Source of the DNA: an uncultured Gammaproteobacteria bacterium
GTDB lineage: Bacteria > Pseudomonadota > Gammaproteobacteria > Xanthomonadales > Xanthomonadaceae
Assembly (NCBI GenBank): GCA_964640525.1
Contig: CAZXGS010000008.1
Location: forward strand, 7,174 to 71,173
Reading direction: 5' to 3'
Length of the DNA: 64,000 nucleotides
Part shown: positions 3,158 through 58,193 of the stretch, piece after piece
Layout: every line of letters begins with the position of its first letter
Numbering within the stretch: position 1 is the stretch's first letter
Made by a program: the position numbers and the translations under genes
The notes under the pieces: generated by a model
Database searches by the model: none
Seen by the model: only the letters and a program-made list of their open reading frames with translations
Told to the model about the DNA's origin: nothing

Positions 3158-3559
3158 TCAAGGCGACTTGGCCTGCGCGGCCGCGAGCATCTCCGCCATC
3201 GCCTGTTGCACGACCTGGATCGCCTTGAACGGCCGCACCATGACCTTGAAATCCACGATCAACCCCGCCTCGTCCCACGCGATCAGATCCACGCCGTTGA
3301 CCTGGATGCCGTCGATCGAGGTTTCGAATTCGAGCGCGGCGTCGCGTTCGCCGACGACCTGCCGCACGTAACGAAAGCTGGTGTTGCCGAACACCTTGAA
3401 CGCCGCGCCGAGGTAGGCCGCGACCACCGCGCGGCCGGATTGCGGGGCATGCACCAGCGGCGAATGGAACACCGCATCTTCGGCCAGCAGCGCCGGCAGC
3501 GCGGCGGCATCGCGCGCCTGCGCGACGCGATGCCATGCCTCCAGCGGATGCGCGCTCAT
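3158..3559 (-). CDS. small NTF2/SnoaL-like fold protein (133 aa)
   Basis: C-terminal part of track ORF 3158..4027, starting at ATG 3559 (MSAHPLEAWHRV...). Coding-like composition and a 4-nt ATGA overlap with the upstream gene. Fold family assigned by eye only. Confidence 0.5.
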   Translation of the reverse strand: MSAHPLEAWHRVAQARDAAALPALLAEDAVFHSPLVHAPQSGRAVVAAYLGAAFKVFGNTSFRYVRQVVGERDAALEFETSIDGIQVNGVDLIAWDEAGLIVDFKVMVRPFKAIQVVQQAMAEMLAAAQAKSP

Positions 3560-4127: not shown

Positions 4128-4628
4128 GGAATGACCGAATCTTGCCGATCGCGAGCAAGCCGTACGCGGCTCACGGTCGCGGGCAGGGTTAAGGCCGCAG
4201 CCGCTCGTGGTTCGACAGGCTCACCACGAACGGGAAATTCGATAGGCCTGTCCTGAGCCTGGCGAAAGACTCGCCACGAACGGGGATGGCGAAAGGCCCG
4301 AATTCCGTTCATGGTGAGCAGGATCGGTCGAGAACGAAGTTCGAGCCGATCCGTGTCGAACCACTTGCGTGATGGGCCGAATCTTGCCGATCGCGGGCAA
4401 GGCGCACGCGGCGCGTGGTCGCGGGCAGGGTCATGGTCGCAGCCGCTCGTGGTTCGACAGGCCTGTCCTGAGCCTGGCGAAGGGCTCACCACGAACGGGA
4501 AATTCGACAGGCCTGTCCCGAGCATGGCGAAAGGCTTACCACGAACAGGGATGGCGACGGGCCTGTCCTGAGCTTGGCGAAGGGCCTGTCCTGGACCTGG
4601 CGAAAGACTCACCACGAACGGGAATCGC
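4128..4628. repeat. modular REP array A: about 110-bp head modules followed by tandem 50-bp units containing gtcctgagcctggcgaagggctcaccacgaacgg
   Basis: 50-bp periodicity (tcgacagg at 4454 and 4504, and the variant gcgacggg at 4554). Head module present twice (about 4128 and 4375). Same architecture at 10001-10560. The track ORFs here (4112..4615 and others) are translations of the repeat. Confidence 0.85.
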
Positions 4629-4630
4629 CA

Positions 4631-5863
4631 TCAATCCGTCCGCAACGCCGCGATCGGGTCCAGCGCTGCGGCCTGGCGTGCGGGATAGATGCCGAACGCC
4701 AATCCGATCGCGGCACACACCACCGCCGGCAGCAGGATCGGCAGCGGCGCCCAGGCCACCTTCCAGCCGGCGAAGCCGGCGATCGCCAGCGCCAGCGCCA
4801 CTCCGAACGCCAGTCCGAGCAGGGCGCCGGCGATGCAGATCACCGCCGACTCGCGCATGAACTGCGCGATCACGTCCTTGCGGCGGGCGCCCAGGGCGCG
4901 CATCAGGCCGATCTCGCGGCGCCGCTCCAGGACGTTGGCGAGCATGATGTTCATGATCCCGATGCCACCCACCAGCACGCTCACGAACGCGATCGCGGCC
5001 ATCACGATGCGGAAGATGTTCTGGGTCTTCTGGTGCTGGACGAACAACTGCTGCGGCACCACCAGGCTGTAGTCGGCGACCCCGGCGTGACGTTGATCGA
5101 GCAGGGCCGACAGCACCTTGGCGTCGGCGGCCATGTGCTGGGGCCCGGACAGGCGCAGGATGAAACGGTCGATCTGCGGCTCCAGCGGCTCGAAGCGGAA
5201 GCGCGCCAGCGCGGTGGACAGGGGCAGGAACACGCGGTTGGCGTCCAGTCCCAGTTGCACGCCCTCGAACTGGCTGCCGCCGAGGTCGCGGTCGGCCAGC
5301 ACGCCGACCACGGTCAACCAGACGTGATCGACCTTGATCGGCTTGCCGAGCGCATCCCCGTGCGGGAACAAGTCGTGCGCGGCCTGGTGGCCGAGCACCG
5401 CGACCGCAGCCATGCCCTCCTCGTCGGCGGCCGTCAGCACCCGCCCCTGCGCGGCGCGCAATGAGGACAGCGCGAAGTACGCCGGGGTCACGCCGCTGGC
5501 GCTGGCATTGCCGGAGGCGGCGTCGCTGAACACGCCCCAAGTCTTGATCTGCTTCTCCGCCGCACTGGCATCGGCGTCCGGCACCACCGCGCGGGCGGCC
5601 TGGGCGTCGGCAAGGCTCAGGCCGAGGCTGCGCTTGCGGGCCTCCTTCAGCGCTTGCTCGTCCTGAGCGACGCTCTGCACGATCAGGTTGTCCAGGCCCA
5701 GGCCCTGCACCAGACGCTCGGCCTCACGGCGGCCACCCTCGCCGACCGCCTGCATGGCGACGATCGCGCCGACCCCGAAGATCAGGCCGAGCAGGGTCAG
5801 GCCGGTGCGCAGCTTGCGTCGCGCCAGTTCGTCGATGGCCTCGCGCCAGGCTTGCGGAATCAT
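4631..5863 (-). CDS. ABC transporter permease, MacB/FtsX family with periplasmic domain
   Basis: 410 aa. N-terminal TM helix, a large periplasmic segment, then the C-terminal FtsX module (IMNIMLANVLERRREIGLMRALGARRKDV...). ATGA overlap with the upstream adaptor gene. Confidence 0.9.
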   Translation of the reverse strand: MIPQAWREAIDELARRKLRTGLTLLGLIFGVGAIVAMQAVGEGGRREAERLVQGLGLDNLIVQSVAQDEQALKEARKRSLGLSLADAQAARAVVPDADASAAEKQIKTWGVFSDAASGNASASGVTPAYFALSSLRAAQGRVLTAADEEGMAAVAVLGHQAAHDLFPHGDALGKPIKVDHVWLTVVGVLADRDLGGSQFEGVQLGLDANRVFLPLSTALARFRFEPLEPQIDRFILRLSGPQHMAADAKVLSALLDQRHAGVADYSLVVPQQLFVQHQKTQNIFRIVMAAIAFVSVLVGGIGIMNIMLANVLERRREIGLMRALGARRKDVIAQFMRESAVICIAGALLGLAFGVALALAIAGFAGWKVAWAPLPILLPAVVCAAIGLAFGIYPARQAAALDPIAALRTD

Positions 5864-7065
5864 GCGCCGGCCGCCTTTCCCGTCGGCAACAACAGCACGC
5901 GATCGCCAGGCGCAAGACCCTTCAGGATTTCGCTGCGGGCCACGCCGCGCGCGCCGACCACCACCGCGCGCCGTTGCCTGCGCCCGCCGGTCAGCACGTC
6001 CACGAAGTCATGGCCACCGGCGGCGATCAAGGCCAGGTTCGGCACCGTGATGCCGGCCTTGGCGCGGCGCAGCTCCACCTGCGCGGCGAAGCGCTGGCCT
6101 GGCGTCCAGCCATGGCGCGCGGCGGCGGCGGCCGGTACCAACGCCTTGAAGGCGACGTACTTGGCCGGGTTGTCTTGATCGCGCGCCTGCGCCGCATCGG
6201 CCACCCACGACACCCGGCTGGCGATCGCCTGTGCCGGGTGGCCTTCCGGATGCAGGCGGACGGCGTCGCCGACGTGCAGGCTCTGGGCATCGAGTTGCGG
6301 CAGGCTCAGCTCGACGTCGAGCTGGCTCACGTCCGGCAGCTTGGCGAAGTCCATGCCCGCCCAGAGGGTCGCGCCGATCTGCGGCTTCTGCCCGCTCCAG
6401 TCGGCCTGCAGCACGAACACGCCGGCGTGCGGCGCGGCCAGCTCGAGTGCGGCCAGGCTCTTGCGGTCCGTGTCGGCCTTGAGCGCGATGGTGGCGCGCT
6501 GGGCGTCCAGCACCGCCAGTTCGCTGGCACCGCGCGCGCCGGACTGGGCGCGCTTCCAGTCGAGGAAGGCTTGCTTGTGGTCGAGCAGGCGCTGGTCCTG
6601 GACGGCATCCATGACCTTGTCGCGCGCATACATCGTCAGCGGCGCGTGGGCGAACCGGCGGGCGATGCCCAGGTCCACGCCGACCTGCGCCAGGTCCACG
6701 TCCACCCGGCCCTCGGCGGTGGCCAAGTCCTGCCGCTTGCCGGCCTGGTTGAGCGCGTTGCGCTGCAGATCCAGGGCCGACTGGTCCAGCTCCAGCCGGG
6801 TCTGGGTGGCGGCAAAACGCGCCACTACCTGGCCTTTGCCCACCCGGCTGCCCTCCGGCAACATCCACACCAGCTGCCGCTTCGACCACTGCGGCCCGGG
6901 CACGTTCAGTGGCGTGGCCTGGACCGATTGCAGCTCGCCTTGCGCGCCGACCGTGAGCGCGATCGGCGCTGCGACGATCGTCTCGACGGGATGCTGTGCC
7001 TGCGGAGGACTGCACGCGCAAAGCGCGGCCAGACAGGCGATGGCGATGCCGAGGCGCCGCTTCAT
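5860..7065 (-). CDS. HlyD/MFP-family periplasmic adaptor, lipoprotein (adaptor 3 of 3)
   Basis: 401 aa. Lipobox LAALCAC, lipoyl-like GSRVGKGQVVARF, a long coiled-coil segment and C-terminal beta domains. ATGA overlaps on both sides. Confidence 0.8.
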   Translation of the reverse strand: MKRRLGIAIACLAALCACSPPQAQHPVETIVAAPIALTVGAQGELQSVQATPLNVPGPQWSKRQLVWMLPEGSRVGKGQVVARFAATQTRLELDQSALDLQRNALNQAGKRQDLATAEGRVDVDLAQVGVDLGIARRFAHAPLTMYARDKVMDAVQDQRLLDHKQAFLDWKRAQSGARGASELAVLDAQRATIALKADTDRKSLAALELAAPHAGVFVLQADWSGQKPQIGATLWAGMDFAKLPDVSQLDVELSLPQLDAQSLHVGDAVRLHPEGHPAQAIASRVSWVADAAQARDQDNPAKYVAFKALVPAAAAARHGWTPGQRFAAQVELRRAKAGITVPNLALIAAGGHDFVDVLTGGRRQRRAVVVGARGVARSEILKGLAPGDRVLLLPTGKAAGA

Positions 7066-8027
7066 CGCCGCACCTTCGTGGTGTCGATCGTCACGCTCAC
7101 CGGCTGGCCGGGACGCAGACTGGCGGTGCGGCCGCTGAGCGCGATCGTCACATCGACCACCGGCACCGGCTCGGACCGGCTCTTGCTGTGGACGACCTGG
7201 CCGATCGCAACCACGCGCCCGTCCAGACTGTTGCCCGTACCGCCGTCCACGCCCACCTGCACCGGCTCACCCAGCGCCAGCCGCGCCAGCTCGCGCTCGG
7301 CCACCCAGGCCCGGATCTGCAACGAAGAAAGGTCTGGAATCTGCGCCACCGCCTGACCGCGCCAGACCCGCGAACCGACGTCTATCTTGCCGCCGTTCCA
7401 GTCGTCGGCGTGGATCATCACCCCGCTGCGCGGGGCGGTCACGGTCAGCGCCGCGATCGAGGCCAGCAACGTGCCCACCTCGCCGCGCAATTGCCCGGCT
7501 TCGGCTTGCGCCAGGCGCAATTCCTCGCTGCGCTGGCGCGCCTGGAGCTGCTGGCGCTGCTGCTGCAGCGCGTATTTCGCGCGCGCCTGTTGCAGGCCGA
7601 TCACCAGCTTCTTGTAGGCGTTGCCGGCGATCAGATCCTTCGGCTCGGAGGCCTTGCGTTGCGCCTTTTCGAAGTCGGCGCGCGCCTGCTCGGTGTCCAG
7701 TGCGGACTGGCGCTCGCGCTCGGCCAGGTCCAGTTGCAGGCTGGCCAGCTCGGTCTGCTTTTCCTTGAGCTTGCTCTGCTTTTCGTTCAACCGGGTGGCG
7801 AGGTCGCCGGCGTCGAACGCCGCCACCACTTCACCCTTGCGGACGCTGGCGCCGTCGGCGGCGAGTTGGGTGAGGTTGAGCATCCACAGACCATCGACCG
7901 TTGGCGGCGCGATCGCCGCGCTGTCGCGGGCGACCACTTCGCCTTGCGCATGCACGGAATTCGAGGCGGGCGTGGCCGCAGCCAGCCCGAGGCCGGCAAG
8001 CAGGAGGCTGGCGATCGCAACCTTCAT
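7062..8027 (-). CDS. HlyD/MFP-family periplasmic adaptor (adaptor 2 of 3); conservative start
   Basis: Track ORF 7062..8438. The ATG at 8027 gives MKVAIASLLLAGLGLAAATPASNSVHAQ/GEVV..., a canonical signal peptide, followed by lipoyl-like GASVRKGEVVAAFD and a coiled coil. In-frame duplicate starts exist at 8168 and 8309 because of the 141-bp tandem repeat. Confidence 0.75.
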   Translation of the reverse strand: MKVAIASLLLAGLGLAAATPASNSVHAQGEVVARDSAAIAPPTVDGLWMLNLTQLAADGASVRKGEVVAAFDAGDLATRLNEKQSKLKEKQTELASLQLDLAERERQSALDTEQARADFEKAQRKASEPKDLIAGNAYKKLVIGLQQARAKYALQQQRQQLQARQRSEELRLAQAEAGQLRGEVGTLLASIAALTVTAPRSGVMIHADDWNGGKIDVGSRVWRGQAVAQIPDLSSLQIRAWVAERELARLALGEPVQVGVDGGTGNSLDGRVVAIGQVVHSKSRSEPVPVVDVTIALSGRTASLRPGQPVSVTIDTTKVRR

Positions 8028-8366
8028 GCGTGGCCCTTGCCGCCATCGGCAGGCGCGCTGCCGACCTCGACCCGCACGCTCATTTTGCGCATGCACGGCA
8101 TTCGCGGCGGGCGTGGCCGCGGCGAACCCGAGGCCGGCAAGCAGGAGGCTGGCGATCGCAACCTTCATGCGTGGCCCTTGCCGCCATCGGCAGGCGCGCT
8201 GCCGACCTCGACCCGCACGCTCATTTTGCGCATGCACGGCATTCGCGGCGGGCGTGGCCGCGGCGAACCCGAGGCCGGCAAGCAGGAGGCTGGCGATCGC
8301 AACCTTCATGCGTGGCCCTTGCCGCCATCGGCAGGCGCGCTGCCGACCTCGACCCGCACGCTCATT
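7944..8366. repeat. 3.0 x 141-bp perfect-phase tandem repeat spanning the junction between two adaptor genes
   Basis: Units 7944-8084, 8085-8225 and 8226-8366. Units 2 and 3 are identical by eye. Unit 1 differs at 5 positions, all between about 7958 and 7984. Each unit holds the last 19 codons plus stop of the upstream gene and the first 28 codons of the downstream gene. Confidence 0.9.
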
Positions 8367-9292
8367 CCCGGCCGCAGCGCCGTCGGTGGCGTGCCGTCGA
8401 TCGCAACGTCGACCTGGAAATAATGGCCGCGGCCCCACTCGGCCTTGGCTTCCGGCGCCCCGCCGATGGCGCTGACGTGGCCGGCCATGCGCCGGCCCGG
8501 CCAGGCATCGAACACCAAGCCCACGCGCTCACCCACGCGCAGGCCGGCGCGGTCGGACTCGATCACCCACGCACGCACTGCCATCGGACCGGCGCCGACC
8601 ACTTCGCCGATCTCGCGACCGGGGAAACTCGATGCGCCCTCGTCGATCCGGCCGCCATTCTCGCTCTCGCTGTCGAACGCATGCAGCAGCACGCCATCGC
8701 GGTCCGCAACCACCTGCGCCATGCCGACCTGGGTGCCGGCATAGTCGGCCTGGAGGGTCAGGTTGGCGACTTCCAGCTTGCCGTCCTCGACCCGTCGCGC
8801 GACTGCCGTCTGCGCCGCCGCCAGTTCCTTGCGCTTCAGCGCCAACTCGTTTTTCGCCCGCAGCGCCTGGCCCTGGTAGCGGTCGTAGTCCAGCGCCGAG
8901 ATCAACTGCCGCGGGATCGCCGCATCCACCTGTGCGTCGTCGAGCGCGGCCTGCGCATCCACCTGCGCGATCTGCGCGTCCACGACCTTGACCTTCAGCG
9001 CCGCGACTTCCTTGTCGACGCGCGCCTGCGCCTGCTCGATCTGCGCCTTGGCGTCGCGCACCAGGGTGGCGAACTGGCCCGGGTCGATCCGCACCAGCAC
9101 CTCGCCCTTGCGCACCCGCGAGCCGTCGGGCAGGTAATAGCGCAACACCACCGGCGAGGAATTCGACGGCGGGGTGTAGAGGATCTGGGCATCGACCGCG
9201 CGCACCTGCCCGGTGAGCAGGGTCGTCGCCGGGGCCGCCGACGGCAGCGCCAGCAGCAGCGTCAGCGCCACCGCGTCAGGCCGCCGAATCAT
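8306..9292 (-). CDS. HlyD/MFP-family periplasmic adaptor (adaptor 1 of 3)
   Basis: Track ORF 8306..9334 trimmed to ATG 9292 (MIRRPDAVALTLLLALPSAAPA). Lipoyl-like GSRVRKGEVLVRIDPGQ and coiled-coil AQIEQAQARVDKEVAALKVKVVDAQIAQVDAQ. Its start overlaps the ATPase stop by 17 nt. Confidence 0.8.
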   Translation of the reverse strand: MIRRPDAVALTLLLALPSAAPATTLLTGQVRAVDAQILYTPPSNSSPVVLRYYLPDGSRVRKGEVLVRIDPGQFATLVRDAKAQIEQAQARVDKEVAALKVKVVDAQIAQVDAQAALDDAQVDAAIPRQLISALDYDRYQGQALRAKNELALKRKELAAAQTAVARRVEDGKLEVANLTLQADYAGTQVGMAQVVADRDGVLLHAFDSESENGGRIDEGASSFPGREIGEVVGAGPMAVRAWVIESDRAGLRVGERVGLVFDAWPGRRMAGHVSAIGGAPEAKAEWGRGHYFQVDVAIDGTPPTALRPGMSVRVEVGSAPADGGKGHA

Positions 9293-9950
9293 GGTCCACC
9301 TTGCCATCGCGCAAACGGATCTCGCGTTGCGCACGCGCGGCCACCTCGGCGTCGTGGGTGACCAGGACGATGGTCTGGCCGCCGGCGTGCAATTCCTCGA
9401 ACAAGCCCAGCACGTCGCCGGCGCTGCGCGAATCGAGGTTGCCGGTGGGCTCGTCGGCCAGCAGCAGGGCCGGCTGCATGACCAGCGCGCGGGCGATCGC
9501 GGCGCGTTGCATCTGCCCGCCGGACAACTCGCCGGGGCGATGGTCGGTGCGCGCGGCCAGCCCGACCCGCGCGAGCAGGCCGCGCGCCCGCTCGCGCGCG
9601 TCCGGGTCGGGGGTGCGCGCGAAGCGCAGCGGCAGCAGCACGTTCTCGAGCACGCTCAGGCGCGGCAACAAGTGGAAGGACTGGAACACGAAACCGATCC
9701 GGCGATTGCGCAATTCGCTGGCGGCCTCGTCGTCGAGGCTCGCCACGTCGTGCTCCTCCAGCCGGTAACGGCCCTCGTCGGGCCGATCCAGACAGCCGAG
9801 CAGGTTGAGCAGGCTGGACTTGCCCGAGCCCGAGGCGCCGGTGATCGCGACGAACTGGCCGCGACCGATGCCCAGGTCGATCCCGGCCAGCGCGTGCACG
9901 GTCGCCCCGCTCATCGCGTAGCGGCGGTGGATGCCGGTGAGTTCGATCAT
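9276..9950 (-). CDS. ABC transporter ATP-binding protein, MacB/LolD-like
   Basis: Track ORF 9276..10079 trimmed to ATG 9950 (MIELTGIHRRY); the upstream part is REP translation. Walker A GASGSGKSSLLN, signature LSGGQMQRAAIARAL, Walker B LLLADEPTGNLD. Confidence 0.92.
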   Translation of the reverse strand: MIELTGIHRRYAMSGATVHALAGIDLGIGRGQFVAITGASGSGKSSLLNLLGCLDRPDEGRYRLEEHDVASLDDEAASELRNRRIGFVFQSFHLLPRLSVLENVLLPLRFARTPDPDARERARGLLARVGLAARTDHRPGELSGGQMQRAAIARALVMQPALLLADEPTGNLDSRSAGDVLGLFEELHAGGQTIVLVTHDAEVAARAQREIRLRDGKVDHDSAA

Positions 9951-10000: not shown

Positions 10001-10560
10001 CGCAACTGCGGGCAAAGTCATGGTTGCAGCCGCTCGTGGTTCGACAGGCCTGTCCTGAGCCTGGCGAAGGGCTCACCACGAACGGGAAATTCGACAGGCC
10101 TGTCCTGAGCCTGACGAAGGGCTCACCACGAACGGGAAGCTCGACAGGCTTGCCCTGAGCTTGGCGAAGGGCTCACCATGAATGGGGATGGCGACAGGCT
10201 CTGCACAAAGGGAGATGGCAAGGGGGATGGCGACAGGCTCAAGACGAACCTGGTATCCGAAGTCCGTTCGTGGTGAGCAGGATCGGTCGAGAACGAAGTT
10301 CGAGCCGATCCGTGTCGAACCACTTGCGTGATGGGCCGAATCTTGCCGATCGCGGGCAAGGCGCACGCGGCGCGTGGTCGCGGGCAGGGTCATGGTCGCA
10401 GCCGCTCGTGGTTCGACAGGCCTGTCCTGAGCCTGACGAAGGGCTCACCACGAACGGATACCGCGACAAGCCTGTCCTGAGCATGCCGAAGGGCTCACCA
10501 CGAACGAAAAATTCGACAAACCCGTCCAGAGCTTGGCGAAGGGCTCACCACGAACGGAGT
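10001..10560. repeat. modular REP array B (same family as array A)
   Basis: 50-bp units start at 10041, 10091 and 10141, and again at 10413, 10463 and 10513. Head module at about 10330. Lies between the tkt stop and the ABC ATPase start. Confidence 0.85.
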
Positions 10561-12693: not shown

Positions 12694-12728
12694 CCCCTCT
12701 CCCACCGGGAGAGGGGTTGGGGTGAGGG
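12694..12728. repeat. REP-like palindromic element, family A (cccctctcccaccgggagaggggttggggtgaggg)
   Basis: Perfect hairpin cccctctccc/gggagagggg. Copies at 45789-45824 and, as a variant, 63472-63514. Each is followed 45-100 bp later by a family B element. Confidence 0.75.
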
Positions 12729-12854: not shown

Positions 12855-14621
12855 TCAATCCGGATACAGTGGCGGCAAGCCTTCCCGCGCTGCCTGCGCA
12901 CCCGCCGGGTCGAGCCAGCGCGGCCGCTTGGCGAACGCCGCGCGCAAGGCCGCCAGTGCCTGCGCCGAGGGCTGGCCGTCGGCGCTCCAGCGCGAGCTTT
13001 CGCAAGCCTTCAAGGCGGTGCGCTGGGCCGGATCGGCCAGGCGCTGCTGCAAGGCATCGAGGTCGCGGGGTCGCGGTGACGGCGCGCTCTCACGCAGGAT
13101 GCGCACGACCAACGCCACGTCGCCCAGCGCCAGCGCAGCATCCAGCTTCGGCAGCACCGGCGCATCGGCGCCCGAAATCGGGCTTGCTTCCTCGTCGCGC
13201 GGGCGCCGCCGGCCCCAGGCCAGGGTCAGGACGAGGATCAACGCCAGAACCGCCGCCGCGCCCTGCCACCAGCGCAACATCGGATTGGGCTGCAACTCGC
13301 CCCGTGCATGCGCAGCCATCGGCGCCGATGCCGGTGCGGGCGCGACGCCGGTGGTGGGCGGGCCAGCGGGCACGGTTCCCGCACCAGGCTGCACCTGCAA
13401 CAGCGGCAGGCGGGTCTGCGCCACCTGTGAGCGGTCGTGGACCACGTCCCACCACGGCAGCGACAGTACCGGCAACTGCAGGGTTCCAGCTTGTGCCGGC
13501 ACGATCGCGAAGCGCCGCGTGCGCTCGGCGTGCAGGGTGTCGCCGGTCAAGGCCTGGGTAGTGGTCGAGGGTTCCGGGTACACCTGCGCGCCGGGAATCG
13601 CTGGCAGTTCGATCTCCGGCAACTGCGTGGCGGCCACACCGTCGGCCGTCTCGTGGAGTACGAGTTCGAACGGCTCGCCGGCACGCGGCGCGGTCGTGGG
13701 CGCATCCACCACCCACCCCACGGATTGCGCCGGCAGCCACGGCTCCCCCGCCTGCGCCGGACGTGCCCGCACCGTCAGCGCGATCGCCCGGCCGGTCGCG
13801 CGCAGGGTACGCAAGCCACCCATGCCGACGAAGGCATCGTCGAAGGCGTTGCCGGGGTCCTGGGTCGGGTCGACGATGGCCTGGCCTTGGAACACCGGCG
13901 CCGGGATGTGCGCGCTGCCGCTGTGCTCGGGCACCAGCAGGTAATGTCGCTCGATGACGACGTAGTTGCGACCATCCACCACCGCGCTGTCGCGCTGGTC
14001 CGGCCCGATCTGGCGCAGGTCACCATTGTCACCCGCGGGCAGGTCGAGCGAACCGCCGAACAGGTTCACCGCGTAGTACAGACGCAGGGTATAGACCACG
14101 GCCTGGCCGACGTAGGGATCGGTCTGCGCCACCGAACCGACGACGAAGGCAGGATCCCCGGGCTTGCCGGCGTGCACGGGTGCGGCGCCGGCCTGGCCCG
14201 GGGTCGTCGCCATCGCACCGCTGGCCGTGGGCGCCGCATCGACCTGGACGCGTAGCAGGTTCGTGGATTCGGTTCCGACAGTGAGCGGCGGAATCTCGAT
14301 CAGGCCGGCGTGGCGCGGCGTCATCGTCACCGACCATTGCTGGCTGGATTGCATCGCGCCATTGATGATCGTGGTCTGGCTGCCGGTGGACTCGCCCAGC
14401 AATTCGAAGTCCTTTTGCAGTGGCGCAAGCTCCGGCTTGGCAGACGAGCGATCACTGCTCAGGGTCAGGGTGATCGTTTGACCCAAGGCAATGTGATCGC
14501 GGTCCAGCGACGCGCGCACCGCCGCGCTGGCGTGCAGGACACCGCACAGGCCGAGCACGGCGCATGCGATGCGCAGGGCCGGACGGGCGAACGCTGGTTT
14601 GCGTGGACGACCAGAATTCAT
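12855..14621 (-). CDS. batD: BatD-family protein (oxygen-tolerance operon component)
   Basis: 588 aa. Signal peptide, BatD-like N-terminal region ([17 protein letters not shown]...), a C-terminal TM segment and tail. Last gene of the moxR-bat operon, with an ATGA overlap to batB/C. Confidence 0.75.
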
Positions 14622-16663
14622 CGCGAGTCTCCCTGTTGCCGACGCTGGTACTCGAGCCAGAACTTGCGCTTGAGCAGCGCGCCCGGATCGTCCGGCACGC
14701 GTTGCAGCAGACGTTCGTCGGCCTGTTGTCGCTCGCGCTGCGCGGTGGACGGGATGCTCGCCAGAGCCTGCTTGCGATCGCCATGATCCTTCCGGCCCAG
14801 CGCCTGCCGCATCGCGCGCTGCTGCGCGGCATCGGCAGCCGCCTGCCGCGCGGCATCGGGCCTTGGTTGCGTCGCCTGCGCTTGCTGCGCGGCTGCGGAC
14901 GCGTCCTTGCCGTGGTCGGATGGCGGCGAGGCGGTCGCTGCCTGCGCTTGCTGCGGCGGCTTCCGGGGGGCTTGCTGTTGTTGTTGAGCTTGTTGTTGTT
15001 GAGCTTGTTGTTGTTGAGCTTGTTGTTGTTGAGCTTGTTGCTGTTGGGCTTGTCGCTGTTGGGCTTGTCGCTGTTGGGCTTGCTGCTGTTGGGCTTGCTG
15101 CTGTTGGGCTTGCTGCTGTTGGGCTTGCTGCTGTTGACCTTGCTGCTGTTGGGATTTTTGCTGTTTCGCTTGCAGCTGTTGCGCTTGCTGTTGCTGCGCC
15201 TGTTGTCGTTGCGACGGCTGCTGTCGCTTGTTCCGTGCCTGCGCCTGCCTCGAGTCGGATGAAGACTGCTGCGGCGGCGGCTTGCGCTGGGCCAGCAGCT
15301 TGCGTACCGCTTCAATGTTGGCCTTTGCATCGGCCATGCCCGGCTGCTGCGCCAGCGCGCGCTGCCAAGCTGAAATCGCGTCCTCGTAGCGCTTCATCTT
15401 CGCCAATGCATTGCCACGGTTGTAATCGGCGTCGGCATCGTCGCGAGCGGACCAGTCGGCAACTGCGGCGGCATAGTCGCCGCGCAGGTAAGCGGCAGCC
15501 GCACGCTGCGCGGGGGTTTGCGCCAGCGTGGTCGCTGCCGTGGCATCGCCGGTGCGCAGCGCCTGGTCGGCGCGCTGGTCGCGACGCTGCCACAGGCCGT
15601 TCCAGGCATCCAGCGGCGCCGCACGCACCGGCTGCACCGGCATCACCAGCACGGCCAACAGCACCGCGGCCAGCCAGCCGCGCCGAAACGCCAGCGCCGC
15701 CAGTGGCAGCAGGAGCAGCAGCAGCCACGGCCCGGTATCGCGCCACACCATCGCCTGCGACGATCCCGCGGCAGCCTTTCCTTGCGATGCGACATCGAGC
15801 ACGCCGAGCGACGCCAGATCCTGCCCGGAGGTGTCGATCGGCGCATAAAGACCGCCGCCCGCCGCGGCCAGGTCACGCAGCGCGGCATCGTCGCGCCGCG
15901 CCACCATCACCTGCCCGCCGGCGTCATGGACGAAGGATCCGTTGGCATCCGGCAGCAGCCCGCCCTGCGGGCTGCCGACACCGATCACGTCCACCCGATA
16001 ACCGCGCGCATGCACGCGGCGCGCCATCGCGATGGCCGCCGGATCGGCATCGTCGCTGAGCAACAGGATCCGGCCGCGGGTGAATCCGGCCTGCGACAGC
16101 AGGTCGGCGGCTCGATCCAGCGCGAGGTCGGCGCGCTGACCATCCACCGGCATGGTGTCGGGCGCCAGCGCGACCACCATATCGTCGAGGCTGTGCGCAT
16201 CATCGGAAATCGGCGCCACGGTGAAGGCATCGCCGGCGTAAGCCACCAGCCCCATTTGCCCACCGCGGCGCTGCGCGATCAACTGCTGGACCTTCAGCCG
16301 CTCGCGCAGCGCGCGCGTCGGCGCGAGGTCCGCCACCCGCATGTGCGAGGACATGTCCTCGACCACCACCAACGGCGCCTGGACTTCCCACGTCGCCGTC
16401 GTGGCGCGCTGCCACGCCGGTCCGGCCAGCGCCAGCACGGCGAGGACGTAGCCGACCGCGAACAGCGTCATCGGCCACGCGCGCCGTGCGCCCGGCATGG
16501 TCTGCAGCAGGCTCGGCAACAGGTGGGCATCGACCGCACGCGTCCACGGCGAGTCCGCACGCGCGCGCTGGTGCCAGCGCCACCACAGCAGGGGCAGCGC
16601 GAGCAGGGCCAGCAGCCACCACGGGCGCAGCAGGTGTGGTAACAGCGGCGACAGCGCGTTCAT
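14618..16663 (-). CDS. VWA-domain protein fused to a TPR region (BatB/BatC-like) with a Gln-rich repeat tail
   Basis: Track ORF 14618..16735 trimmed to ATG 16663 (MNALSPLLPHLLRPWW...). Two N-terminal TM helices, a VWA region (VVVEDMSSHM...LLLSDDAD), a TPR-like region (AAAAYLRGDYAAAVADW...YNRGNALAKMKRYEDAISAWQRAL), then QQAQQ repeats. Confidence 0.8.
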   Translation of the reverse strand: MNALSPLLPHLLRPWWLLALLALPLLWWRWHQRARADSPWTRAVDAHLLPSLLQTMPGARRAWPMTLFAVGYVLAVLALAGPAWQRATTATWEVQAPLVVVEDMSSHMRVADLAPTRALRERLKVQQLIAQRRGGQMGLVAYAGDAFTVAPISDDAHSLDDMVVALAPDTMPVDGQRADLALDRAADLLSQAGFTRGRILLLSDDADPAAIAMARRVHARGYRVDVIGVGSPQGGLLPDANGSFVHDAGGQVMVARRDDAALRDLAAAGGGLYAPIDTSGQDLASLGVLDVASQGKAAAGSSQAMVWRDTGPWLLLLLLPLAALAFRRGWLAAVLLAVLVMPVQPVRAAPLDAWNGLWQRRDQRADQALRTGDATAATTLAQTPAQRAAAAYLRGDYAAAVADWSARDDADADYNRGNALAKMKRYEDAISAWQRALAQQPGMADAKANIEAVRKLLAQRKPPPQQSSSDSRQAQARNKRQQPSQRQQAQQQQAQQLQAKQQKSQQQQGQQQQAQQQQAQQQQAQQQQAQQRQAQQRQAQQQQAQQQQAQQQQAQQQQAQQQQQAPRKPPQQAQAATASPPSDHGKDASAAAQQAQATQPRPDAARQAAADAAQQRAMRQALGRKDHGDRKQALASIPSTAQRERQQADERLLQRVPDDPGALLKRKFWLEYQRRQQGDSR
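14971..15213. repeat. about 16 tandem 15-bp coding repeats (QQAQQ pentapeptides) inside the batB/C-like gene
   Basis: Unit cttg(c/t)tg(c/t)tgttg(g/a)g recurs with strict 15-bp phase from 14989 to 15213. Confidence 0.85.
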
Positions 16664-17664
16664 GCCACGACCCTGCGTGGCAGCGGCGCGAGGATCCCGG
16701 CCATCGCCAGCCCCAGCGCGCCGCCGAGGAACCACGGGTACAGTTCGACCCGGGGCCGCTGTGCCTGCTGCGGTTGCAGCACCGGTTCGATGCGGTCGAG
16801 CTGGGCGTAGATTCCGGCCAGGGATTCGGTATCGCGGGCGCGGTAGTAGCGACCGCCGGTCATGCTGGCGATCTTTCCCAACGTGTCCTCGTCCACGCCA
16901 TCGCCCTGCGTCGGCAAGGCCATGCCGAAGAACGACCCTTCGCTGCCGTCGCCGCCGAAGCCGATGGTGTAGATGCGCACATGCTTGGCCGCGGCCAGTT
17001 GCGCCGCCTTCAACGGCGCGATCGCGCCGGCATTGCTGACCCCGTCGGTGAGCAGGATCAGCACGCGATCGGATGCCTTGCCGGCATGCGCGTCGGTGGC
17101 GAGCAGGCGCTTGACCGCGAGCACGATGGCGTCGCCGATCGCGGTGTTGTCGCCCGCCAACCCGGCCTCGCTGCCAAGCAACTGGTCGCGGACGCTGCGC
17201 AGGTCCCAGGTCAGCGGCGTCACCGCGTAGGCATGGGTGCCGAACACCACCAAGCCGACGCGGTCACCGATGCGGCGGGTCAGGAAGTCGCCGAGGACTG
17301 CCTTGATCGCGGTCAGCCGGTCCACCACCTGTCCACCCAACTCCATGTCCTGGCTGCGCATGCTGCCGGACAGGTCCACCGCCAGCATCAGGTCGCGGCC
17401 GCTGCGCGGGGGTTGCACCAGCGGCCCCAATTGCTGCGGACGCGCGGCCGCCACGCACAGCAGCAACCACGCCAGCAACGGCCACCACCGCAGGATTCGC
17501 TCACGGTGGCGGTCCCCGTGGTCGCCGCGCAGGGCGGCGATGGCGGGTGCGAACGGGGCCCGCAGCGCCACCGCGGCGAGCCTCGGCGCGCGCGGAAACC
17601 AGCGCGCGACCAGCCACGGCAACGGCAGCGCCAGGAACACCCACGGCCAGGCAAACTCAGGCAT
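16660..17664 (-). CDS. batA: VWA-domain protein BatA
   Basis: Track ORF 16660..17865 trimmed to ATG 17664 (MPEFAWPWVFLALPLPW). MIDAS-type DLSGSM and LLTDGVSNAG. C-terminal TM helix. Confidence 0.85.
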   Translation of the reverse strand: MPEFAWPWVFLALPLPWLVARWFPRAPRLAAVALRAPFAPAIAALRGDHGDRHRERILRWWPLLAWLLLCVAAARPQQLGPLVQPPRSGRDLMLAVDLSGSMRSQDMELGGQVVDRLTAIKAVLGDFLTRRIGDRVGLVVFGTHAYAVTPLTWDLRSVRDQLLGSEAGLAGDNTAIGDAIVLAVKRLLATDAHAGKASDRVLILLTDGVSNAGAIAPLKAAQLAAAKHVRIYTIGFGGDGSEGSFFGMALPTQGDGVDEDTLGKIASMTGGRYYRARDTESLAGIYAQLDRIEPVLQPQQAQRPRVELYPWFLGGALGLAMAGILAPLPRRVVA

Positions 17665-56853: not shown

Positions 56854-58193
56854 CCTGTGGTCACCAGCGAACTGCCCGGCTTGGCCGGGTCCGGCACCAC
56901 CGTGACCGAGGTGGTGGTGCCATTCGGGGTCGACAGCACACCGTCGACCTCGACGGCATTTTGTTCCTGGCCAGCGGCACAGGTGACGCCGCCGGCGCAG
57001 ATGTAAGTCACGCTGGACACCGTGAAGCCGGAGCTGGCCATCTGCCCGGAATAGGTCTGCCAGGCGGTGTACGGATTGCCGGACAGCGACACCGAACTGC
57101 TCGTGGTCATCCCGCCGGATGGATTCAGGGTCACCGTGACCACCGAGGATCCCCGCTGGAACACCAGCACCACCGATCCGTCCGCCTGCTTGGTGTTGCT
57201 GACCACGGAAAATCCCATCGCCGCGTACTGGGCGATGACCTGGTCGATTTGCGATTGCGACACGCCGGTTGTGCCGCCACCGGGCGGGTTGTAGTTCTTC
57301 AGCCGATCCGCCGGCACCGAACCGGCATCGGTCACATCGATGTAGCCGAAGCCCACCGGACCGCCGCCCTGGCTGCCCAGGTCGGGAATCACGAACCCGA
57401 TGATGCTCTGGAAATCGCTGACCAGCTTGCCGATCGACGCCAATGCCTTGGGTCGGGTGGCGCAATCGTTGTCCAGCGTCCCGAGGATCGACGTGGGCAC
57501 CGCCGTGGCCGCCTGGCAGCGCTCGTATTTTTCGTCCGCGGCGCTCCATCCGTCCGCGAGCAGGACGTCGCGGGCGGAGAAGGTCAAGGATTTTCCATCG
57601 ATCAGGTTGACGTAGTCAGTCGGACCGATCGGCATCTTCGGTTTCACCGCGACATTGGCGGTGTAGTACTTGTCCATGGTCAGCACGAACCCTGCGCCCA
57701 CCAAGTCCCGCAGCGGCTTCAGGGTGACATCCAGCACCTTGTCGGTGGCAAAGCTGCCCGGCTCGGCATTGCCTTGCGCGGTGGCCGTGACCTGGTTCGC
57801 CTTGCCGACCAGTTGGTTCCCGCCCTGATCCACCCACAGCGGCAGGTTGCCGAAGTTCGCCAGCGAATCGTTCTGCTGCTGCGTGACGCCGGTGAATCCG
57901 CTGCTGAAGAAGCGCATCTTGACCGCATTGGCGAGCTGCGCGTCGGTCAGCTTGGCCATCTTGGCATCGCGCTCGTAGCCCGAATTGCTGTACACCGTGC
58001 GCTCGAAGGCGGTGTAGCGCGCCGCCTGCAGGGTCGCCGAGCGCATGGTGATGAACTTGCCGACCAGCACGATCATCAGGAAGAACGGCGCCAGAAAAAA
58101 CAGCGCCACGATGATCGACTCGGCCATCGACTGCCCGCGCATGCCGCGCGGTGGCACGAATGACCCGTCCCGCGGGCGCAGCCGAGCCCTCAT
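56850..58193 (-). CDS. large TadE-like N-terminal domain protein (447 aa)
   Basis: Track ORF 56850..58505 trimmed to ATG 58193 (ATGA overlap with the upstream gene). GQSMAESIIVALFFLAPFFLMIVLVGKFITMRSATLQAARYTAFE is TadE-like. About 380 aa of unassigned C-terminal sequence follows. Confidence 0.7.
   Translation of the reverse strand: MRARLRPRDGSFVPPRGMRGQSMAESIIVALFFLAPFFLMIVLVGKFITMRSATLQAARYTAFERTVYSNSGYERDAKMAKLTDAQLANAVKMRFFSSGFTGVTQQQNDSLANFGNLPLWVDQGGNQLVGKANQVTATAQGNAEPGSFATDKVLDVTLKPLRDLVGAGFVLTMDKYYTANVAVKPKMPIGPTDYVNLIDGKSLTFSARDVLLADGWSAADEKYERCQAATAVPTSILGTLDNDCATRPKALASIGKLVSDFQSIIGFVIPDLGSQGGGPVGFGYIDVTDAGSVPADRLKNYNPPGGGTTGVSQSQIDQVIAQYAAMGFSVVSNTKQADGSVVLVFQRGSSVVTVTLNPSGGMTTSSSVSLSGNPYTAWQTYSGQMASSGFTVSSVTYICAGGVTCAAGQEQNAVEVDGVLSTPNGTTTSVTVVPDPAKPGSSLVTTG

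Follow-up and report, generated by a model that had tools for sequence, protein, structure and literature searches.

A 141-bp tandem repeat at a translationally coupled adaptor junction of a MacB-type efflux operon, probably a recent lineage-specific amplification

Within the 64,000-nucleotide stretch of DNA analysed here (the window), the junction between two neighbouring adaptor genes is present three times in succession. This raises the question as to whether the array is a recent amplification, a copy-number-variable switch or an error of assembly, the three options named by a first-pass annotation, and what a threefold translation start and signal peptide would mean for the downstream protein. 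The genes concerned form a conserved five-gene MacB-type ABC efflux operon on the minus strand, made up of an ATPase, three HlyD-like adaptors and an FtsX/MacB permease. The first gene encodes an ABC ATPase of the MacB/LolD type (9276..9950) and overlaps the start of adaptor 1 by 17 nt. Adaptor 1 (8306..9292) is a 328-aa HlyD-like periplasmic adaptor that is 100% identical to the public gene call P0070 on the 81,282-bp NCBI source contig, and adaptor 2 (7062..8027), a 321-aa HlyD family protein by its Pfam profiles, is 100% identical to public gene call P0001, also of 321 aa and with its start at 8027. They are followed by adaptor 3 (5860..7065), a 401-aa protein with weak HlyD/RND_mfp similarity, and by the permease (4631..5863), which has MacB_PCD and FtsX domains; the ATPase, adaptors 1 and 3 and the permease were all assigned by profile matches. 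ATGA overlaps occur at the junctions between adaptors 2 and 3 and between adaptor 3 and the permease as well as at the repeated one. Features of a MacB-type operon are found in the MacB_PCD (8.7e-33), FtsX (4.8e-21) and ABC_tran (5.8e-32) matches, and the best NCBIfam matches are MacB and LolD, both under their equivalog cut-offs. Judged by profile scores, adaptor 2 belongs to the HlyD/membrane-fusion-protein family, with 48 bits for HlyD_D23 (cut-off 30) and 45.9 bits for HlyD_3 (cut-off 22.2). For adaptors 1 and 3 membership is suggestive: they fall under the Pfam cut-off (20.2 and 23.2 bits) and match RND_mfp at 2.7e-15 and 1.5e-18, respectively, and the homologues of adaptor 1 carry the HlyD family name in their sources.

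TRF delimits the tandem array at 7944-8366, with a period of 141, 3.0 copies, 98% matches, no indels and a score of 811. The array reads on the minus strand with its units head to tail, and on either side of it the sequence is collinear with the relatives' operon. A chance origin of an exact 141-bp repeat is impossible. The three units described at first pass (8226-8366, 8085-8225 and 7944-8084) were recovered exactly by TRF and by unit alignment, and translation reproduced the anatomy proposed for them, with the genes on the minus strand: in the coding direction, every unit consists of one base, the last 19 codons of adaptor 1 (MSVRVEVGSAPADGGKGHA) with a TGA, and 28 signal-peptide-like codons, the ATG of which overlaps the adaptor-1-type TGA as ATGA and has AAGGG six bases 5' of it. 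Unit 1 (8226..8366), the most upstream on the minus strand, carries the true end of adaptor 1, with its 19 codons and the TGA at 8306-8308, and the ATGA overlap with an SD-like AAGGG; its copy of the adaptor-2 signal peptide is of the F variant and begins at ATG 8309. Unit 2 (8085..8225) has the same sequence as unit 1, so that a pseudo-copy of the adaptor-1 tail, with its TGA at 8165-8167, is followed by a second F-variant signal-peptide copy with its ATG at 8168. Unit 3 (7944..8084) is joined to the mature adaptor-2 body and contains another pseudo-copy of the tail (TGA 8024-8026) and an L-variant signal peptide with its ATG at 8027. Since the true tail and stop sit in unit 1, the coding sequence of adaptor 1 is unaltered, with a C-terminus of MSVRVEVGSAPADGGKGHA directly before the TGA.

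The borders of the array are sharp, with zero extra shared bases (GCTGCGGCCGGG/AATGAGCG ... CATGCGCAA/GGCGAAGT, the slash marking the border), and the units meet at a novel joint, CAA/AATGAG (...GCGCAA/AATGAGCG...), within the joint sequence GCATGCGCAAAATGAGCGTG. As the periodicity stops exactly at both borders, the joint shows no microhomology, and a search for microhomology or palindromes at the unit ends found none in register. Within the array no Rfam family was matched, none of the promoter-like sites sought on its opposite strand was found, and a scan of JGI metagenomes with a 36-nt core of the unit gave 0 matches. The opposite strand has one terminator-like match, at chance level. Long plus-strand ORFs cross the array and are taken to be the antisense ORFs usual for a 70% GC genome.

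Alignment on the coding strand confirms the earlier by-eye impression that the two distal units (8366-8226 and 8225-8085) are identical and that the third (8084-7944) differs at five clustered positions, namely columns 100, 102, 105, 121 and 127 (window positions 7985, 7983, 7980, 7964 and 7958). The changes are L15F, which takes 2 nt, one synonymous GCT/GCC exchange, S22A and S24A. Together they span 28 of the 141 columns (P about 0.005 by permutation) and all fall in the last 42 columns, from column 100 onwards (P about 0.002), with the other 99 columns identical. Clustering of this kind makes independent point mutations unlikely and a single event likelier, and on the alignment a recombination or conversion tract that ends near column 99, and that may run into the adaptor-2 body, is the more likely explanation. 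A relative from another sample, L083 from SRR25435993, has 95.1% nucleotide identity, so that donors of such a kind exist. The proposal that the duplicated copies derive from a different allele than the resident one is therefore plausible, given a pattern expected of a recombination boundary and the 95%-identical relative. Elsewhere in the window there is no donor for the F-variant patch, and the 33-nt variant sequence is found in the two upstream units only (0 matches expected).

To place the array in an evolutionary context, we compared the junction with that of 80 related loci, mostly from Lysobacterales/Xanthomonadales and a few from Burkholderiales. In all 80, as far as the contigs reach, four or more of the operon's five genes keep their order; in 74 all five are present. 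Adaptors 1 and 2 are fused in one reading frame in 26 of the 80 loci, in agreement with the 630-660-aa homologues returned by the protein search. Stop and start overlap as ATGA in 43 and as GTGA in nine of the 54 unfused loci; going by these sequences, stop/start coupling is the family norm. TRF reports a tandem repeat at the junction between adaptors 1 and 2 in 0/80 related loci. A protein search found 66 homologues of adaptor 2, and their coverage of the triplicated 415-aa query does not exceed 82%. Among these homologues, 20 were aligned, each showing one comparable signal segment at its N-terminus, and the N-termini of eight were read; a duplicated signal peptide is absent in those eight, each of which has a single one, and five longer homologues read separately have no duplicated signal segment either, four of them looking like lipoproteins. 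The junction spacing gives a second line of comparison. The adaptor-1 stop and the G-E motif conserved in mature adaptor 2 lie 56-106 nt apart (median 74) in 52 of the 54 unfused relatives, the two remaining loci having given a spurious negative distance. The corresponding distance here is 365 nt, or 83 + 282 (2 x 141), and with two units removed it becomes 83 nt, within the range of the relatives. The junction spacing and the absence of the repeat in relatives together imply that one unit is ancestral and that two are a derived insertion. Comparison of the site in related genomes thus bears out that the array is unique to this lineage, a single and probably uncultured one within Lysobacterales. 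As the nearest sequenced relative at the junction has about 58% protein identity, the event is not datable more closely.

On balance, we think it probable that the 141-bp junction between adaptors 1 and 2 underwent a recent tandem amplification specific to this lineage, with little functional consequence. Recent amplification is the best supported of the three options considered at first pass, with units 1 and 2 identical and no repeat in the 80 loci, and it is the identity of units 1 and 2 that speaks for recency. Tandem duplications arise by illegitimate joint formation, followed by RecA-dependent unequal crossing-over. For this locus, a first step would have been an illegitimate, microhomology-free duplication of the junction that created the novel CAA/AAT joint, and in a second step unequal crossing-over between homologous units, in the first 99 columns that they share, would have added the third unit. 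The order F-F-L is what unequal exchange within these shared 99 columns of an F-L duplication would give. The five clustered differences of the last unit would then mark a single recombination or gene-conversion boundary and not gradual divergence.

An amplification of this kind has to be told apart from an error of assembly. Between the two identical units 100 different 141-mers recur, and uniqueness is reached only by k-mers of about 240 nt, so that a short-read assembler must have inferred the loop traversals; the F-F adjacency is visible to reads or k-mers of at least 115 nt, long enough to reach from column 127 of one unit to column 100 of the one after it. Independent Logan assemblies (k=31) of the same strain, from SRR11845634 and SRR11845619, gave contigs that match 4489-8022 and 4489-8015 of the window at 100% identity and have their opposite end in a REP-like repeat. 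L084, a third Logan contig, likewise terminates at 30-mers that recur in the window, and every Logan contig end examined falls on such 30-mers, from which it follows that contig ends in these data mark repeats. The start of contig L002 lies exactly 30 nt (k-1) ahead of column 100, at which the units first differ, and the contig is then unbroken for 3.5 kb, including the stretch past column 127, where a two-allele bubble must re-join. This topology is expected of a tandem array, in which the F copies run on into the joint and not into the gene body, and not of a strain bubble. Contig L001 runs 7 nt beyond the end predicted from a fork at column 100, which may reflect additional heterogeneity.

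These observations bear directly on the possibility that the whole repeat is artefactual, with one junction unit in the genome and co-occurring F and L strain alleles stitched in tandem. Such an origin would suit a source that is probably metagenomic, units set apart by 5 substitutions in an allele-like patch, and a period, 141, that is also a common upper limit for k in assemblers. We nevertheless regard it as improbable, given that the joint shares nothing with the true flanks, so that k-mer overlap cannot create it without reads, and that the k=31 L-variant contig forks at column 100 with no second fork after column 127. The largest default k of MEGAHIT is 141, the same as the repeat period. 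As a sufficient explanation a k=141 artefact was rejected, since a unitig at k=141 cannot hold 100 repeated 141-mers, and the agreement between period and k is probably a coincidence. From the sequence and contig evidence, duplication of the junction is very likely real.

For the number of units our confidence is lower, and three would be the true copy number with only reasonable likelihood. A different possibility, which we judge unlikely though deserving of attention, is that a real tandem duplication was given the wrong count, the true array having, for example, two units (F-L) or another or heterogeneous number, and the loop having been mis-traversed. Across the F-F part the only unique k-mers are those of about 240 nt or more, the source is very probably a MAG, as are its nearest relatives, and the Logan contigs, from at least three runs, are just 2-3.5 kb long and broken at every repeat; in addition, L001 and L002 end differently in the array, which hints at heterogeneity between samples. 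Against a miscount, ordinary 150-nt reads could support at least two F units, and assemblers tend to go round a loop as few times as the data allow. As to the assembly-artefact option raised at first pass, then, the copy number may be in error, and a wholly invented repeat is unlikely in view of the novel joint and the fork that does not close.

What would the cell make of the array as assembled? The ATGs at 8309, 8168 and 8027 share one open frame and give products of 415, 368 and 321 aa; translation reproduced these in-frame starts and the long product with its 19-aa linkers, both of which had been pointed out before. Adaptor 2 thus has three equivalent SD and ATG sites within one open frame. 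The 415-aa product has three MKVAIASLLLAGLG(F/L)AAATPA(A/S)N(A/S)VHAQ segments joined by NERAGRGRQRACRWRQGPR, and each of the two NERAGRGRQRACRWRQGPR linkers, 19 aa long and rich in arginine, is the adaptor-1 tail read out of frame. Predicted signal-peptide features are an MK start, a 16-residue hydrophobic core (Kyte-Doolittle >1.8) and a V-H-A/Q site. Hydrophobic segments of the 415-aa frame lie at residues 3-18, 50-65 and 97-113, with V-H-A/Q after each, and the net charge of the 20 residues that follow the three VHA/Q sites is +6, +6 and -2. A passage in PMC9697088, citing Andersson and von Heijne 1991 and Peters et al. 1994, states that positive charges just past the signal-peptidase site hinder SecY-dependent translocation, and under the positive-inside rule basic segments remain cytoplasmic (PMC9360617). 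Ribosomes coupled to the adaptor-1 stop would start at 8309 and produce the 415-aa precursor, with other ribosomes beginning at 8168 or 8027. Signal-peptide copies 1 and 2, each with the +6 linker of 19 aa behind it, would be poor initiators of Sec export, and the third, with the slightly acidic, normal mature N-terminus behind it, would initiate export. The charge pattern after the three sites leads us to expect export and signal-peptidase cleavage at the last VHA/Q, and all three starts should yield the same mature adaptor 2 with the N-terminus QGEVVARD. Overall, the array is likely to be neutral or slightly deleterious, or to alter the yield of adaptor 2 to a modest degree, and it is probably no regulatory device.

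Two regulatory roles suggested at first pass are not supported. In the first, each extra unit would carry a mini-ORF of 19 codons that relays termination-reinitiation from one start to the next. The mini-ORF ATG (columns 2-4; upstream sequence GCATGCGCAAAATG) has no SD before it, and ribosomes from 8309 read straight through the 415 codons of the other frame, on which grounds the relay was discarded. The adaptor-1 frame is open throughout units 2 and 3, so that mini-ORFs could exceed 19 codons. The second role, a phase-variable-like switch, is excluded in its classical form by an in-frame unit of 47 codons: a change in copy number cannot turn the gene on or off. It also conflicts with the identical SD/ATG contexts of the three starts and with the expectation that every precursor matures to one and the same protein.

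One further functional reading is that the array is a selected copy-number-variable cassette, in which the multiplied SD/start/signal-peptide module uncouples adaptor 2 from adaptor 1 or raises it relative to adaptor 1, or makes a membrane-anchored long isoform, and in this way adjusts the stoichiometry or topology of the pump. The unit is an exact multiple of 3 with the frame open through all units, the SD-like AAGGG and the ATG are kept in every unit, and the changed residues keep a good A-x-A-type site (AANAVHA), unlike in decay. Yet about one third of random tandem duplications are divisible by 3, identical copies show no selection signal, and the arginine-rich linker, being an out-of-frame adaptor-1 tail, is not evolved sequence; nor is there any conservation, the array being absent in the 80 related loci and in the adaptor-2 homologues with N-termini examined. 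We therefore hold this cassette to be highly improbable. If it were true, a maintained variable array would amount to a 'junction amplification' that tunes the subunit stoichiometry of a three-adaptor MacB-type pump. The array is outside any regulatory repeat family, and a recent amplification with little consequence remains our preferred reading.

If real, the locus is a natural, early-stage case of microhomology-free tandem amplification at a translationally coupled junction and, at the same time, a natural 'tandem signal peptide' construct. The array opens no new question. In practice, it marks a site at which copy number and gene-start calls from a MAG are untrustworthy without long reads. 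Of wider interest is the conserved five-gene MacB-type operon itself, with its three HlyD-like adaptors; about a third of the relatives have two of these fused into a single protein.

How does the array compare with known systems? Phase-variable contingency loci with simple-sequence repeats also have a repeat at the translation start, but their short units shift the frame or the promoter spacing, and the 141-bp unit found here cannot shift the frame. In-frame coding repeats with long units, VNTR-like and known from surface proteins, share with the array a unit that is a multiple of 3, a preserved frame and a copy number that could change by recombination. In those systems, the repeated element is a domain inside one gene and the arrays are usually conserved among relatives, whereas the present unit straddles two genes, is partly out of frame and has no counterpart array in any relative. 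With ordinary ATGA-coupled operon junctions the locus shares the ATGA overlap itself, present at all three junctions from adaptor 1 to the permease; what sets the repeated junction apart is that two further identical starts come after the coupled one in the same frame, with the consequence that the coupled product is an N-terminally extended precursor. Spontaneous bacterial tandem duplication and amplification shares with the array head-to-tail copies, a single novel joint and near-100% identity, and is likewise lineage-specific and expected to be unstable. The segments usually studied in that setting range from kb to Mb, compared with only 141 bp here, and what has been multiplied here is the stop/start/signal-peptide module of a coupled junction and not whole genes. 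The array thus represents an ordinary class of mutation, a tandem duplication followed by amplification, in an unusual place, a coupled gene junction.

Within the array of three 141-bp tandem units at the junction of adaptor 1 and adaptor 2, two Logan contigs from different runs of the same strain, L001 (SRR11845634) and L002 (SRR11845619), both terminate in unit 3, the unit joined to the body of adaptor 2, at positions that differ by 7 nt (window 8015-8022). The L002 end lies at the k-1 position predicted for a fork at column 100, the first of the five variant columns that separate unit 3 from units 1 and 2; the L001 end lies off that position, which suggests that the array in SRR11845634 carries additional sequence heterogeneity.

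Contig ends also mark other repeats in the window. A REP-like element of ~50 bp, with the core GTTCGTGGTGAGCCCTTCG...CTCAGGACAGGCCTGTCGAA, is present in 10 minus-strand copies (4213-4619 and 10065-10555), which are grouped as short tandem arrays in a single orientation throughout and are confined, within the window, to the immediate flanks of the five-gene transporter operon on both sides; Logan k=31 contig breaks fall inside these arrays. The 30-mer CTCCCACCGGGAGAGGGGTTGGGGTGAGGG at 12699-12728, which occurs twice in the window and coincides with a Logan contig end, may represent a further family of small dispersed repeats. A minus-strand ORF (14618-16735) that neighbours a BatD-domain gene (12855-14621) contains ~15 repeats of a 15-bp unit (14976-15205) encoding the low-complexity (AQQQQ)n tract of a 705-aa protein, and one Logan contig ends within this repeat.

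ARAGORN predicts three tRNAs of 84-85 nt in the window, all on the minus strand: Gly-GCC (3450-3533), Arg-GCG (17397-17481) and Arg-TCG (57302-57385). These calls may represent unusual tRNAs or else be false positives; an Rfam scan of the window at the gathering threshold matched neither a tRNA nor any other family.

Among 80 related operons, adaptors 1 and 2 form one fused protein of 630-660 aa in 26 (loci L011-L015, L017, L020, L029, L035, L039, L040, L042, L051, L057, L063, L064, L067, L068, L070, L072-L075 and L077-L079). The fused proteins, P0004-P0007 and others in the protein search, have no internal signal peptide, whereas in the remaining operons the two adaptors are separate, their reading frames overlap as ATGA or GTGA, and a separate signal peptide is present. 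Given this split, the adaptor 1/adaptor 2 junction is a recurrent point of gene fusion and fission.
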